Shown: positions 32,774-43,791 of the stretch, piece by piece
Layout: each line of letters starts with the position of its first letter
How positions within the stretch are numbered: the stretch's first letter is position 1
Origin: Waddliaceae bacterium
Lineage (GTDB): Bacteria > Chlamydiota > Chlamydiia > Chlamydiales > SLFE01
NCBI GenBank assembly: GCA_963783885.1
Contig: CAWAPJ010000008.1
Location: forward strand, 64,001 to 128,000
Reading direction: 5' to 3'
DNA: 64,000 nt
Made by a program: the position numbers and the translations under genes
The notes under the pieces: model-generated
Seen by the model: the letters and a program-made list of their open reading frames with translations, nothing else
The model's database searches: none
Told to the model about the DNA's origin: nothing

Positions 32774-34564
32774 TTAGTGAAGAGCCGTTCCTGGTGTCAC
32801 CTTGCCTTCAGGCGATAGGATTTTTCCGGAAGCTTGAATGAGGGGGTTGTAGGGCAGTTTCATTTTTCTGTTGATAGAAGTCTTTTTCATATATGCCAGG
32901 AGGCCTGAAGATTTCAGGCTGAAGATAAATTGTTTTTTCGTCAGAGTCTTTCTGCGGAGCACGTATTCTTTATAAAGGCGGCTTAAACTGTGACTGATCG
33001 TGCGCTGCTGGCTGAGGTCGGTTTCCTGGTATTTTTGCAAGTAGCTGACAAGCTTTTCTTTAAAATTCTTATTCGGCTGATCGTTGTTGCTGCTGATTAA
33101 CTCGTAAATTTTCACACCGATCTCTTTTAAGGCATGTTTTCTTGCCTTGTTCAGATTCGCCATTTTCTGATTGAGTTCCGAATGGAAAGTGATCGAAGGG
33201 AGGCTTGTATTCAGTGCGATTTGTTTTTGCGGCTCAGCGTTCCGGCTCATGACAAGGAGTTCGGTTTTGCCGGGAAGATGGGTTTTTTTATCATAGGTAA
33301 AGTAGCCGACTAAAAGGCGCTGGACATCGATGTAGCCGCTGAGATTTTTATAGGCTTTCACTGCGGTCTTCATCCCTTCGGTTGTGTAAAAGACCAGGTT
33401 GGGCGTTGAGATCATGCGGTTTAAGTCCTGCAGATAATCGCTTGTGATCCCGCTTTCAAGAGCGTCGATCAGCAAAGGTTCGGTAATTTTGTAGTAGCGG
33501 GGGGCATTATAGACCAGATTTTGCGCTCCGGGGGCGATGATTTTCAACTCTTCCGGAGGAGTGAACTGAGCTTTCGGATCGGATTTGCCCAGCCTGTCGA
33601 TGGGAATGAGCCTCCCTTCATTGACAAGCAGCGCGATCCGTTTCATTGTCGCCGCGTTCAAGTCGTTGGCGTTGAAAATAATCCTGTTCAACGGTTGGAT
33701 ATCCCTTACTTTCCTAAGCTCCATCTGAGTCGAGTCGATGACAATCGAATCTTTAGGGCTGAACCATCTGATGAAACTGGGTTTGGGCTGCGCGAGGAGG
33801 AGAAAGCGCGACGCGTCATGGTTTGTGTAGATTCTGAGGATATAGGGGAAGTCGGCAAAGTTCCCTTGAGAATCTATGTTGCAGCAGGTGCGGGAGGATT
33901 TGGGGATGATCTGCCCCAGGATTTGTTCGAGGAATATAGGGTCCGACCAATTGCGGTTGGGAGGTTTGATGCTTTGGGTTTTGGCATAAAAAAGGGCCAT
34001 CGCTGCGTCGGAAAGTCCTCTTGCAGCTCTGAGCTCCTCTTCATCGGTTTTGGCGTGGCTGCTGAAGTAAAGAGTGAACGCCGCAGCACTGACAAGGAGT
34101 AAAATCGCCGCGGCAGAGACGCTTACCCAGAAAGGACCCTTGGGAGGATTATCGCCGCTTTTGTTTTCTTCGGGAGCCTCTTCGAGAGAATCGACTTCTT
34201 TCATCAGTAGCGAGACATCGCCGGCAGTCGATTGTGCGGCTTTTGTCGAAACGGAGCCTTCCTGGACAAGGTCGTCAATTTTATGAACAACCACTTCCAC
34301 ATCGTGAAACATCAAAATAGTGCCTTCTCTGAGAGTGCGCCTTCCGAAAGGAAAGTCGTTGTATTTAACGAGGGGATCGTTGGCCAGATTATGGATGGTA
34401 TAGCGTCCTCCCTCTTCAATGATCTTGGCATGAGGCGTCTCGAGTTTTTCTAGGGGCAAAGGGATATCGACATCGGATGAGGATTTCGGACCAAAGGTGA
34501 TCTCGCGTTTTGCAGAGCAAAATTTTTTTTCGCTTTCATTATGCTTAATTATCAGCGTGATCAT
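32774..34564 (-). CDS. Membrane protein with N-terminal FHA-like domain
   Basis: ITFG...HAKI...YTIHNL...N...L.EG beta-sandwich pattern; one TM helix; large C-terminal domain; GAGGGG before ATG 34564. Confidence 0.65.
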   Translation of the reverse strand: MITLIIKHNESEKKFCSAKREITFGPKSSSDVDIPLPLEKLETPHAKIIEEGGRYTIHNLANDPLVKYNDFPFGRRTLREGTILMFHDVEVVVHKIDDLVQEGSVSTKAAQSTAGDVSLLMKEVDSLEEAPEENKSGDNPPKGPFWVSVSAAAILLLVSAAAFTLYFSSHAKTDEEELRAARGLSDAAMALFYAKTQSIKPPNRNWSDPIFLEQILGQIIPKSSRTCCNIDSQGNFADFPYILRIYTNHDASRFLLLAQPKPSFIRWFSPKDSIVIDSTQMELRKVRDIQPLNRIIFNANDLNAATMKRIALLVNEGRLIPIDRLGKSDPKAQFTPPEELKIIAPGAQNLVYNAPRYYKITEPLLIDALESGITSDYLQDLNRMISTPNLVFYTTEGMKTAVKAYKNLSGYIDVQRLLVGYFTYDKKTHLPGKTELLVMSRNAEPQKQIALNTSLPSITFHSELNQKMANLNKARKHALKEIGVKIYELISSNNDQPNKNFKEKLVSYLQKYQETDLSQQRTISHSLSRLYKEYVLRRKTLTKKQFIFSLKSSGLLAYMKKTSINRKMKLPYNPLIQASGKILSPEGKVTPGTALH

Positions 34565-34675
34565 TGACCCCTCGGATCGATACAAAATTAGTGCTTAGTT
34601 CTACCACATTTTATATTTTAACGAAAAGCGGCATGAGGAGTTTGACAAAAAGCGCAATTAGAGAACAACGCCTAG

Positions 34676-34831
34676 ACCCTGATTGCTACCTAAACCTCAG
34701 CTAGAGCTTACACGAGTATTCCAGATACAACTGTAGCGTCGACGGCAAGGGTAATCCCTTGCCAAGTCGCTACACGCAGTAGATGGTGTGCTCGTGTAAG
34801 CTCTAGCTGAGGTTTAGGTAGCAATCAGGGT
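34676..34831 (+). mobile_element. 156-nt IS982-derived hairpin MITE with 5-bp target duplication CCTAG
   Basis: 41-nt perfect inverted arms matching the IS982 right end with one substitution; apex ggcaagggtaatcccttgcc identical to 42578-42597; cctag at 34671-34675 and 34832-34836. Confidence 0.93.
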
Positions 34832-34921
34832 CCTAGAGCCATTAACGAAACGAAATACTTATTTTAAAATTCTTAAGTTGTGAATCTAAACAATTAGAAG
34901 GCACTGCAAATCAATAAACTA

Positions 34922-34950
34922 TTGACAATAAATGTGATATATAGTAAATT
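34922..34950 (+). promoter_or_regulatory. Sigma70/66-type promoter
   Basis: TTGACA-N17-TAAATT followed by AAGGAG and ATG 34977. Confidence 0.55.
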
Positions 34951-34976
34951 TTTATTGTTAAATAAGGAGATTATTT

Positions 34977-35693
34977 ATGTATTTGACTCCCCCGCATTCA
35001 CCAAAACATACTGAAATTGAAAGACCAAGACGAGGTCAAAAGAGGGCTCCGTCTCATAGACTGAATCTCTACACAGATCCGAAGACGAATAAGAAAATTT
35101 TGAAAACCAAAACTTCTACTCTGGTCCTGAAGTCATTTGCCGATGGGGAATTTCATAAGGTTTGGGAAGTCGAGGGGAAGCCGGGCATTTTGATTAAGAC
35201 GCCGCATTTTAAAAGGCGCAGGCAAGAGATCGAACAGTGTTCAAAAGACACAAAATCAGCCTATGATACCCTTTCAAAACGAACAGATCTTCGGGTTGCC
35301 AAAATTACTACATGGATCGAGGACGAGGGTTATTCCATAGTCGAAAGAGTCGATGGAATTCCACCTTTAGCAAATATACGTCCTCTTCTTGCGAAAATGA
35401 TCACAGATCCAAAGCAATGCTATATAGAGGATTTCATGCCGAGAAACATTCGTGCCGACAGCAATGGGACAGTTGTTGTCATTGACCCTACCAGAAACTA
35501 TAACGAGCTGTCATCACAAGATGATAGGGAAGAAATGGCGCTGAAGATCGCCGATTATTATAGAGCTTGGGCTGATGAAAATGCCAAAATCTATCTAAAA
35601 GAGGATATTAACGTCAATGTGCTGTTAGAACTTTCAAAAGATCTCTTCAATCGTGTTGATCAGAGGCTATCAATCGTGAAAGGGTGTTCTTGA
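34977..35693 (+). CDS. Atypical protein-kinase-like protein, possible effector
   Basis: FADGEFHKVW (Gly-loop-like), ILIK, DFMPRNI (catalytic-loop-like), VVIDP. Confidence 0.6.
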   Translation: MYLTPPHSPKHTEIERPRRGQKRAPSHRLNLYTDPKTNKKILKTKTSTLVLKSFADGEFHKVWEVEGKPGILIKTPHFKRRRQEIEQCSKDTKSAYDTLSKRTDLRVAKITTWIEDEGYSIVERVDGIPPLANIRPLLAKMITDPKQCYIEDFMPRNIRADSNGTVVVIDPTRNYNELSSQDDREEMALKIADYYRAWADENAKIYLKEDINVNVLLELSKDLFNRVDQRLSIVKGCS

Positions 35694-41796: not shown

Positions 41797-42244
41797 ATTA
41801 TTGCTGGCATTTTTATTTTTGCAGGGATTCATCAATCTTACTGAGGCGGTTGATGCTGCGGAGATTGAAGAGTGTCTTGTGATCACTATCCCAAAGGCAG
41901 GAACGCACCTTCTAGTTAAATATTTCCAGATTCTCCTAAGACCCTGATTGCTACCTAAACTTGTTGTCAGGTTTGAAGATATCGTCGGGGATAAGGGGAA
42001 GGGGAGCCGTTTGATGCAGCTGCAAACCTTCCAAGCTATCAATGAATATCTAAATATCTCTGTCGAGGAAGATGAATTTGTCGAGATAGTCGATTCTCTG
42101 TGGGGAAAAGATGATCCCGAACAGATACATCAGCCCACTTTTTTCAAAGGTTATATAGGAAGATGGGAGGAGGAGTTTGACGATCTCGATAAAGCCATCA
42201 TGGAAGACTTTTATGGCCGGCTCATTTCCGAACTGAGATATTAA
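41786..42244 (+). pseudogene. Second sulfotransferase paralogue, disrupted and internally deleted
   Basis: N-part TIPKAGT and C-part VRFEDIVG...TFFKGYIGRW are joined across an IS end; the RDPRD region is absent. Confidence 0.85.
41941..41967 (+). mobile_element. Solo IS982 left-end remnant
   Basis: accctgattgctacctaaacttgttgt identical to 42509-42535; preceded by ctaag (CNNNG). Confidence 0.9.
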
Positions 42245-42508
42245 GCACATTTATAGAGACTCAAGCATCCTAATTGCTGACCATAGCAACCAGATTTTGC
42301 AGAGCTTCAGGGATTGCTTTTCTTAGCTTAAGCCTAATAGTAAAAAAGAGAAGAGGAGCGAGAAGGCCTTTGACCCTTAAATTGTGTTGAATCCGAACCT
42401 GCGAATCACTGATTTTTTCAAGCTGGTGTGTGAAGACCAACTTCGTTCGGGGCATTTTTGTGATGTTGACATGAGATGTTTGGGTTAAATCAGAAATGCA
42501 CCCCTTTG

Positions 42509-43548
42509 ACCCTGATTGCTACCTAAACTTGTTGTTAAAGTCTTTCGTTGGATTCAGATGCGTAGACTCGATTTGAAGGCAAGGGTAATCCCTTGCCGAT
42601 AATCGAGGCTTAGCAGATGAATTCAATGAAAGATTTTAACGACAATAGTCTCTATGATACTTCCTTAGCCAAAAAAAGGGGGCATCATGGAAACTTACGC
42701 AACAACAGTTTATGTCATCAGCGAAGAAATCCTTCGAATTTTGGGGATTAAAGACGATCCTCAATCTCAAATGTCCAACGCAGAAGTGATAACTTTTGCT
42801 ATTTTATCAGCAAAATATTTTTCTTGTAACTATAAAATGTCCAGATATTTATGTAAAAGATTACGATTATTCAGAGCTATTTTAAGCAATAGCCGGCTAA
42901 ATCGCCGAATTCATAAAATTCCTTGGATTTGTTGGAACGCCATTTTCCGTTTTTTAGCTCTATTTTTTAAGCAAATAAATAAAGATCAGGGTTTTGCTAT
43001 AGACAGCTTTCCAGTTTCATGTTGTCAGAAAAATAGAATCGATAAACGGAAGGTTTTTCTAGAACGAAGGTATTTAGGTTTCGCAGCTTCTAAAAAGCGT
43101 TACTTTTGCGGCATAAAAGTTCATATGATTGTGACGAGCGAAGGCAAGCCGGTTGAAGTTCTTTTCAAGCCAGGAGCAGTAAGCGATGTAAAGGTGCTCT
43201 GGGAAATGAAACTGGACATTCCACCAGATTCTAAACTTTATGCAGATGGTGCGTATAATTGCTTTGATTTAGAAGACATCTTGAAAGAAGAACAAATTAC
43301 ATTGCTTGCAAAACGGGGATGTAAAGCAAAGAATAGAGTCCGAACACCAATTGAAGAGAGGGAAATTAGCAGCAAGCCACAGATTGTCGAGACGACATTT
43401 AGCTGCATAACAAACCTTTTCCAAAGAACTTTTAAGTTCTGCACTGAACAAGGCTTTTTGATAAAAGTATTCTGTGCAATTCTTGCCTATAGTGTTTCGT
43501 TTTTATGCTCGTGTAAGCTCTAGCTAAGGTTTAGGTAGCAATCAGGGT
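42509..43548 (+). mobile_element. IS982-family insertion sequence, 1040 bp, 20-bp perfect terminal inverted repeats, 5-bp duplication CTTTG
   Basis: accctgattgctacctaaac (42509-42528) / gtttaggtagcaatcagggt (43529-43548); ctttg at 42504-42508 and 43549-43553. Confidence 0.93.
42687..43523 (+). CDS. IS982-family DDE transposase
   Basis: MSNAEVIT, SRLNRR, IDSFPV, GFAASKKRYFCGIKVH, LYADGAY, IVETTFS. Confidence 0.92.
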   Translation: METYATTVYVISEEILRILGIKDDPQSQMSNAEVITFAILSAKYFSCNYKMSRYLCKRLRLFRAILSNSRLNRRIHKIPWICWNAIFRFLALFFKQINKDQGFAIDSFPVSCCQKNRIDKRKVFLERRYLGFAASKKRYFCGIKVHMIVTSEGKPVEVLFKPGAVSDVKVLWEMKLDIPPDSKLYADGAYNCFDLEDILKEEQITLLAKRGCKAKNRVRTPIEEREISSKPQIVETTFSCITNLFQRTFKFCTEQGFLIKVFCAILAYSVSFLCSCKL

Positions 43549-43791
43549 CTTTGGTTTCAGACAGCCAGTCGTTCCTTTTGCAAAATCTCCATTGAGATGA
43601 CTCCACTCAAGGTCTTTATCCCACTTATGCCAGTTTGGGACATCTTTCCAAATATTCCAAACCTCATCGGGTGTGGCATTTGCTGTCATTTCAACATTGA
43701 TTTCCCAATTAAACATAATGAATCTCTTTTGATAAATGATTTTATCCATCTAGGAAGTGTTTGTCTAAAGAAATAACTGTATAAAAAATAT

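Follow-up and report, generated by a model that had tools for sequence, protein, structure and literature searches.

A 156-bp miniature transposon of a Waddliaceae genome that appears to combine the right-end hairpin of an IS982-family insertion sequence with a second terminal repeat

The DNA considered here, referred to as the window, is a stretch of 64,000 nucleotides from a Waddliaceae bacterium (GenBank assembly GCA_963783885.1, contig CAWAPJ010000008.1, positions 64,001 to 128,000 of the forward strand), corresponding to C8:64001-128000 of the 2.16-Mb, 46-contig assembly (genome G000). Two divergent open reading frames (ORFs), one on the minus strand (32774-34585) and one on the plus strand (34977-35693), enclose a 156-bp element, the subject of this report, which extends from A34676 to T34831, begins with ACCCTG and ends with CAGGGT. 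It is a miniature transposable element with inverted repeats (MITE) whose terminal repeats are those of an insertion sequence (IS) of the IS982 family resident in the same genome. The pentanucleotide CCTAG borders it as a direct 5-bp repeat, to which no strand applies, at 34671..34675 on the left and at 34832..34836 on the right, and represents the target-site duplication. A preliminary description made from the sequence of the window gave the span as 34671..34836, which comprises the element and both copies of the duplication.

From its left tip the element reads as a 20-nt terminal inverted repeat (34676..34695, plus strand) that matches the native right repeat of the IS (IRR) read inward, agrees with the IS repeats at 20 of 20 positions and starts with AC, as in the IS982 family (PMC7335449). 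Next comes an arm (34696..34743, plus strand) that matches the outer arm of the long hairpin, or rod, at the right end of the IS; it is collinear with the IRR-adjacent sequence in the 11 rod-complete IS rows among 13 aligned. The apex hairpin, GGCAAGGG-TAAT-CCCTTGCC (34744..34763, plus strand), is common to the left and right rods of the IS. The arm that follows (34764..34811, plus strand) matches the inner arm of the right-end hairpin and is collinear with the IS up to ...GCTCTAGCTGAG. A second terminal inverted repeat (34812..34831, minus strand) forms an added cap at the inner base of the rod, and it is the sole part of the MITE without a counterpart at the same place in the full-length IS. 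The segments 34676-34716 and 34791-34831 are perfect reverse complements over 41 nt, and beyond this base the arms diverge, reading TATTCCAGATACAAC... on one side and CACACCATCTACTGCG... from the other tip. Folded as single-stranded DNA, positions 34677-34833 form one long hairpin of -67.8 kcal/mol, which none of 200 dinucleotide shuffles equals (mean -18.0, sd 2.8; z -17.65). Within the rod, the g-a at 34724..34725 (plus strand) belongs to a tandem G.A/A.G mismatch, lies opposite a34783 and g34782, and is unpaired in the folds. In the outer arm c34698 is a T-to-C variant, and a34718, t34719 and t34720 are private to this copy and unmirrored. A scan of 34400-35100 against Rfam (E <= 1) gave a single match, to a plant microRNA-precursor model, at 27.8 bits against a gathering score of 79; a known RNA family was rejected, as this match lies below threshold and is a generic hairpin hit.

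The window also contains a copy of the parent IS, at 42509..43548 on the plus strand, in a 1040-bp form without the inner arm and apex of the right rod and with CTTTG duplications at 42504-42508 and 43549-43553. Its transposase (42687-43523, 278 aa) scores 149.8 bits against the NCBIfam model NF033520, 'IS982 family transposase' (cutoff 130), and gives a domain-level match to Pfam PF13612 (55.2 bits, cutoff 27). Members of the IS982 family consist of two repeats around a transposase gene, and their mode of transposition is described as unknown (PMC7335449). The parent IS agrees with the available part of the family description in its ACCCTG... ends, 20-nt repeats, length of 1040-1148 bp and 5-bp duplications; with respect to the consensus AC(N)6T(N)5TT, its repeats have the T at position 9 and agree only partly at positions 15-16, which read CT (PMC7335449). 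The left-end rod of the window IS lies at 42529..42645 (plus strand), and an RNA fold of 42509-42700 has -88.6 kcal/mol and a z of -10.1. The right end of the same copy is short of 104 bp that held the inner arm and the apex together with most of the outer arm, and the junction, between 43507 and 43508, reads TTATG|CTCGTG. About 570 bp upstream of the window IS there is a solo left-type IS end (41941-41967) that consists of the 20-nt repeat and TTGTTGT, is preceded by CTAAG, and is unrelated to the IS beyond 27 nt.

A genome-wide search with the 20-nt repeat, allowing up to 3 mismatches, yielded 83 ends. When these ends were paired, they made up 18 elements of IS size (628-2644 bp), 12 of 115-159 bp and a few of 39-45 bp. 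The elements of 115-159 bp comprise six with two right-type ends (R-R, the window MITE among them), four with two left-type ends (L-L) and two with one end of each type (L-R). A complete right rod is present in 11 of the 18 IS-size copies, ten of them 1144-1148 bp and one 2644 bp in length, and in three further right ends located at contig ends. The right end of a full-length copy (C1 88977-90122) reads ...TTTTTATGCAAAGGGGAG, then the inner arm CTCAGCTAGAGCTTACACGAG CACACCATCTACTGCC..., the apex, the outer arm ...GGCGCACTCGTGTAAGCTCTAGCTAAGG and IRR. In the full-length IS the stop codon of the 279-aa ORF is the TAG of CTC AGC TAG and lies in the right rod, where the inner arm has its base; an uninterrupted ORF of 278-279 aa is retained by 11 of the 16 IS copies translated. 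The L-L elements (n=4, 157-159 bp) consist of the left repeat, the whole left rod and an added repeat. For both ends of the IS there are small elements composed of one end and a second repeat. Deletion derivatives are represented by the two L-R elements, four rod-less IS, two IS with partly deleted rods, one 628-bp form and the mini forms of 39-45 bp. Besides the junction in the window IS, two rod-less junctions occur, GGGGAGCT|CTAGCT in C2 and CAAAGG|TAAGCT in C11, the latter matching CAATAG|TAAGCT in C1 98866; three different junctions fit independent deletions and repeated loss of the hairpin.

Taken together, the window element has the properties expected of a MITE. It is shorter than 300 bp and holds no ORF of 50 aa or more within 34676-34831; its terminal repeats are common to a resident autonomous IS, with 20/20 identity to the IS982-family copies; its duplication has the length of its parent's, CCTAG here and 5-bp CNNNG at parent IS copies; and it has several dispersed relatives, the R-R, L-L and L-R elements. 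Direct 5-bp CNNNG repeats border most copies across the genome. The element is a non-autonomous transposon of a chlamydial IS982-family IS.

Its build emerges from an alignment of six R-R elements with 13 right ends of the IS, the rod being complete in 11 of these. The five 156-bp R-R MITEs align without gaps to the IS rod through the right repeat, the outer arm, the apex and the inner arm up to GCTCTAGCTGAG. At this point the IS runs on as CTCCCC... (CTCCCCTTTGCAT, the antisense of the transposase gene) and the R-R MITEs run on as the terminal repeat; the R-R copy in C35 reads ...CTAAG in place of GCTCTAGCTGAG. In each of the five full-length R-R copies one arm is of the outer type and the other of the inner type. 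The window MITE thus very probably consists of a complete 116-nt right-end rod and one added 20-nt repeat at the inner base. Because the second repeat stands exactly at this base, the MITE resembles a true right end of the IS over the first 41 nt from either tip. The correspondence had been noted previously, and alignment bears it out. Of 41 positions, 40 agree between the right arm and the right end of the window IS (43508-43548); the remaining one is g34809, where the IS has a, and its partner c34698 is complementary to it. The apex at 34744-34763 is identical to the left-end apex at 42578-42597 (20/20), and its distance from the tip is 68 nt in the MITE and 69 nt in the IS. The L-R elements (C1 93451 and C5 72964) are of a different build. 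They consist of the outer right arm, the apex and the outer left arm, with the loop ATTA in one and TAAT in the other, and are the plain apex-to-apex deletions that the preliminary description had expected; its statement that the window MITE is not such a left-arm plus right-arm deletion was right.

Substitutions in the rods allow some of the history of these elements to be traced. The MITEs are 93-97% identical to the resident IS rods, which marks them as recent derivatives. One base pair at the base of the rod is T.G in the IS, with CTTAG in the outer arm and CTGAG in the inner arm of the inward-reading strand. In the window MITE and in copies C19 and C31 this pair is C-G, through a single T-to-C change that turns G.T into G-C; among the other R-R copies it is T-A in C35 and in the short copy C1 66787, and T.G is kept in C43. 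The window MITE, C19 and C31 also have two apex-adjacent changes in common, so that they form one lineage and the T-to-C change counts once. The variant is found as well at the right end of the IS copy C1 98866-99908 (...AAACCTCAG). What had been read as one substitution mirrored in both arms is accordingly this single change, present in three MITE copies of one lineage and in one IS right end. Shared substitutions suggest at least two lineages among the R-R elements.

Several copies show signs of movement. Identical direct duplications border three of the six R-R copies (C8, the window MITE, with CCTAG; C19 with CTTTG; C31 with CTAAG) and two of the four L-L copies (C3 and C36, with CTTTG and CTAGG). 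These flanks are direct, whereas fold-back in situ would give inverted ones, which argues that the R-R and L-L elements moved as units. Mobilization in trans by the transposase of the parental IS is suggested by the duplications and by the 11 uninterrupted ORFs.

Copying of sequence from one arm of a rod to the other does occur in this IS family, as seen in two sibling IS copies and not in the window MITE itself. In the copy C16 (21325-22468), 9 changes relative to its siblings are clustered in a single block of the right rod's inner arm (positions 100-115), and in the copy C2 (83630-84669) the left rod's inner arm has one such block, of 7 changes (positions 100-119). Each block turns the inner arm into an exact mirror of the outer arm, after which 53 of 55 pairs in C16 and 51 of 53 in C2 are Watson-Crick pairs. 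Changes of this kind, clustered in one arm and complementary to the other, are the signature of quasi-palindrome template switching. Template switching is known to correct and expand imperfect inverted repeats (PMC13100816; PMC7202029), and in the model of Ripley (1982), studied in E. coli and yeast, one arm templates the other and clustered changes perfect or lengthen the palindrome (PMC13100816), as in C16 and C2. The known cases lie in short repeats of ordinary genes or promoters; here the extension would duplicate the recognition end of a transposase and so create a mobile unit.

Two further features of the rods concern the strand that would fold. G.T pairs number 3-6 per IS rod on the strand read from the tip inward, against none on the other strand in 19 of 20 IS rods folded (one in C12), and the fold of the inward-reading strand of the IS rods is 2-10 kcal/mol more stable than that of the complementary strand. 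The tandem G.A/A.G mismatch (CAGAT opposite AGATG; window 34721-34728 with 34779-34786) has the same position in the left rod, in the right rod and in the rods of two related IS from other genomes, L011 and L014. It is lost in the block-converted copies C16 and C2. Conservation of a mismatch would make sense only if the folded single strand matters.

Related loci come from metagenome-assembled genomes of Chlamydiae and from one Parachlamydiaceae isolate. Both ends of the IS at L011 and L014 (68% and 55% transposase identity, respectively) bear hairpins that share this design and differ in stem sequence, and inner repeats are absent; in L011 the longest ORF stops 136 nt before the right end, where the right rod has its inner base. 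The presence of rods at both ends in both relatives indicates that the right-end rod is ancestral. The genome of L011 (G041, a fragmented assembly) showed IS fragments only, with no R-R or L-L MITE seen. A search of 401 Chlamydiales genomes for the design, defined as two repeat cores separated by 110-140 nt, gave matches in 9 including this one, at 1-13 matches per genome and 11 in this genome; a control with the reversed pattern gave no match. Copies from this search that were folded form long imperfect hairpins with repeat caps.

Among these genomes G067 has the most extensive family, with 13 rod MITEs and no transposase match at E <= 1e-10. Ten of the 13 copies were aligned (alignment A1), the other three being without a locus. 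In this alignment 9 of 65 pairs are changed on both sides, compared with 4.3 +/- 1.2 in shuffles, none of 500 of which reached 9, and with slid controls the number was 0-3. A G-to-C transversion in one copy is mirrored in its two terminal repeats. The stem changes could be due to selection for pairing, which would account less easily for a change inside the repeats. The tandem G.A is found at columns 47-50 with 107-110 of A1, where columns 48, 49, 108 and 109 are invariant or nearly so across the 10 copies. The family (e.g., L046 1496-1652) has CCCCTG tips and T-rich 5-bp duplications (TTTAA, TCTGA, TATTA and TTCCA).

An independent R-R MITE is found in genome G042 (G042:C117, locus L020, 243-399), with the duplication CTCCG. 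It has C at position 12 of both terminal repeats, a position that is T in all four L-type ends and C in six of the eight other R-type ends, which points to a mirror copy of the right repeat and not to a retained left repeat. The same comparison in other genomes is affected by a resident IS unlike the MITE families in G091, by a left repeat that is polymorphic at the diagnostic position in G077, and by an IS present as fragments in G176. A second G042 locus (L021, G042:C73) has about 100 bp of left flank identical to that of L020, up to the same CTCCG, and of the two rod elements one starts with an inner-type arm and the other with an outer-type arm. Either a flip of the rod or two insertions into a duplicated site would account for this arm order.

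The explanation we favor overall, with a probability of roughly 0.6, is that the window element is a MITE of the right-end rod, that its second repeat was added by extension of the palindrome and that the product was moved in trans. For the second repeat in particular, the odds lean slightly toward template switching on the folded rod. In this scheme synthesis of a DNA strand would proceed inward from the tip and the strand would fold back on the rod; with its 3' end paired at the stem base, it would then take the terminal repeat on its own 5' side as template, in a quasi-palindrome template switch. The new repeat-rod-repeat unit would then be inserted by the IS transposase acting in trans, leaving the CCTAG duplication. 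Four observations favor the template switch. The junctions between rod base and terminal repeat lie exactly on the symmetry boundary and are without microhomology in the R-R and L-L elements of this genome and in the R-R element of G042:C117; block conversions are seen in the sibling copies C16 and C2; the G.T pairs are found on the inward-reading strand, which is the one that would snap back; and both repeats of the G042 MITE have the right-type C at position 12.

A number of points weigh against this reading. The left and right repeats are identical here (20/20), and a deletion of ~990 bp would yield exactly the same sequence. The diagnostic state of the right repeat is known from one MITE in one other genome, G042, and of the four R-R copies of G176 two have repeats that agree in the T/C state at position 12 and two have it mixed. 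The window copy has seven differences from the nearest IS rod, of which two turn G.T into Watson-Crick pairs, one turns a Watson-Crick pair into G.T and four create mismatches. None of the seven has a changed partner, and the MITEs of this genome have no pair changed on both sides; arm substitutions are thus not always mirrored in this genome. The proposal that one arm can be copied from the other is supported for the family by the 9 changes in C16 and the 7 in C2, and by the excess in the related family of G067. This copy is also without strand bias, having two G.T pairs on each strand. Both transposition and template switching are deduced from sequence. Lastly, no empty site was found: the same-genus genome G001 has ~2.8 kb between the same two flanking genes, which are 91-94% identical. 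This interval includes an 816-codon open frame, and nothing in it aligns to window 34628-34959. Homology between G001 and the window stops at window position 34627 (L063, G001:C4:1952900-1956000). At the break, ~150-200 nt into the reverse-complemented L063, G001 has a palindrome of ~40 bp with an IS982-like core, CCGTGATTGC...GCAATCACGG, followed by the 816-codon frame that is absent from the window.

The strongest competitor, unlikely yet to be taken seriously, is a plain internal deletion, which would start at the inner edge of the left repeat, end at the right rod's inner base, remove the left rod and the transposase gene (~990 bp) and leave the left repeat of the IS as the second repeat. 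Given that the two repeats are identical, its product would be indistinguishable in this genome. Deletions are frequent in this IS family, and rare precise events could be enriched by selection, as both tips would then resemble native ends. The deletion would nevertheless have had to place both breakpoints exactly on symmetry boundaries, without microhomology, at least three times (R-R and L-L here and R-R in G042), and the capped side of the G042 element has the right-type C at position 12, where all four left ends have T. A sibling IS with a right-type arm at its left end, which would have made the element an ordinary deletion derivative, was looked for as the preliminary description advised and was not found among the 18 paired IS-size copies, each of which has one L-type and one R-type end. 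A route by transposition, intramolecular or by a second IS entering CTCAG at the inner base of the rod, was rejected by reasoning: the tip of the repeat would then meet the target, and here it is the inner end of the repeat that abuts the rod.

The remaining alternatives fare far worse. It is very improbable that the MITE is the older form and that the IS arose when a transposase gene was captured between an L-type and an R-type rod MITE, with later loss of the inner repeats. The 13 rod MITEs of G067, found without a detectable transposase, would suit such an origin; against it, both rods are present, and inner repeats absent, in IS relatives with as little as 55% identity, the MITEs are 93-97% identical to the resident IS rods, and both inner repeats would need to have been lost precisely. 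Recombination at the apex between two inverted IS right ends, in tail-to-tail copies or on sister strands, has next to no likelihood. It would give the order repeat, outer arm, apex, outer arm in mirror image, repeat, and would be helped by the apex stems GGCAAGGG and CCCTTGCC, which are 8-nt repeats in both orientations, and by the L-R derivatives, whose loops ATTA and TAAT show that apex-to-apex joints form; the two outer-type arms that it predicts are contradicted by the outer and inner arms of all five full-length R-R copies. Equally hard to credit is the model of the preliminary description, in which an apex borrowed from the left end is flanked by two mirrored IS right ends. The perfect 41-nt mirrors, the identity of the apex with the left-end apex and the copying of whole arm blocks in two IS copies could be adduced for it. 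Against it, the arms inside the 41-nt base are not mirrors: one is the native outer arm and the other the native inner arm of the right rod, whose apex is the same as that of the left rod. The supposedly mirrored base, moreover, is a G.T-to-G-C change also present in an IS right end. The 104-bp deletion removed the right hairpin from the window IS, so that a reader with the window alone was misled, and the 'last transposase codons and stop' placed within the arms are a property of the shortened window IS, as the ORF of the full-length IS stops at the TAG in the inner-arm base.

MITEs derived from IS982-family elements are already known, so that the kind of element is ordinary; its build, the hairpin of one end with a second repeat, is unusual and recurrent. 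MITECca01 of the Cardinium endosymbiont cOegib, derived from ISCca4, resembles the window MITE in being gene-less and shorter than 300 bp, in having the repeats of a resident IS982-family element, in its multiple copies and in its presumed movement in trans by intact copies of the parent (PMC9769881). It differs in being a shortened ISCca4 of ~240 bp that keeps a short sequence adjacent to the left repeat, and the accessible part of its description reports neither a hairpin body from one end nor a repeat placed by symmetry (PMC9769881). mISOt4 of Orientia tsutsugamushi, likewise an obligate intracellular bacterium, has repeats in common with its cognate IS, ISOt4 (PMC2575882), which is classed in the IS982 family (PMC7335449). 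The available text on mISOt4 gives common repeats and regions near-identical to the IS, with no mention there of a hairpin body or an origin from one end (PMC2575882). IS982-family elements such as ISPasp3 of Parachlamydia are like the parent IS in their AC ends, length of about 1 kb and a variable duplication range that covers 5 bp; the ~117-nt hairpins inside each repeat of the parent IS are not mentioned in the corresponding part of the family description (PMC7335449). Repetitive elements of the REPIN type, mobilized by RAYT, are also small, non-autonomous and hairpin-forming, with two inverted copies (PMC3116915, PMC3337134). REPINs differ in their use of tyrosine (HUH-type) RAYT transposases and, as far as these sources describe them, in having no DDE-type terminal repeats with target duplications (PMC3116915, PMC3337134). 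A literature search, with subscription journals and ISfinder entries outside its reach, returned no report of chlamydial rod MITEs or of an origin of bacterial MITEs from one end or by template switching.

The interest of the window MITE is that it would not be a shortened IS; it would be the hairpin of one end with a second recognition repeat set exactly on the symmetry axis. The same design arose for the left and the right hairpins in this genome and again in another. Block conversion in sibling copies offers a testable route, in which template switching on a quasi-palindrome could turn a transposon end into a mobile element. A single rod seems to be enough for both ends, which would make these MITEs natural substrates for probing the role of the conserved rod in IS982 elements. 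A broader and distinctly doubtful proposition is that the real IS end in this clade is the terminal repeat together with a strand-specific, folded single-stranded rod containing the conserved tandem G.A, and that MITEs are born repeatedly by snap-back mirroring, with one rod serving both ends. If that were true, the rod MITEs would be natural minimal substrates, and transposition would proceed via single-stranded, hairpin-bearing ends in a DDE family of unknown mechanism.

Composite arrangements were also observed at a few loci. In C35 2683-2998 the first 160 bp of the IS, up to the CTTAG of the 5' leader, abut an R-R element, and CTAAG borders the whole on both sides. About 800 bp further on (C35 3812-3856) lies a 45-bp rod-deleted mini element with nearly the same right flank (CTAAGGGAAT[A/G]GAC). 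C1 66370-66901 resembles this arrangement, a left part of the IS ending in CCTTGG being followed by a short R-R element. In C19 58023-58128 an R-type end is inserted into the CTTAG of the left rod of another copy, which suggests that the rods themselves hold preferred target sites.

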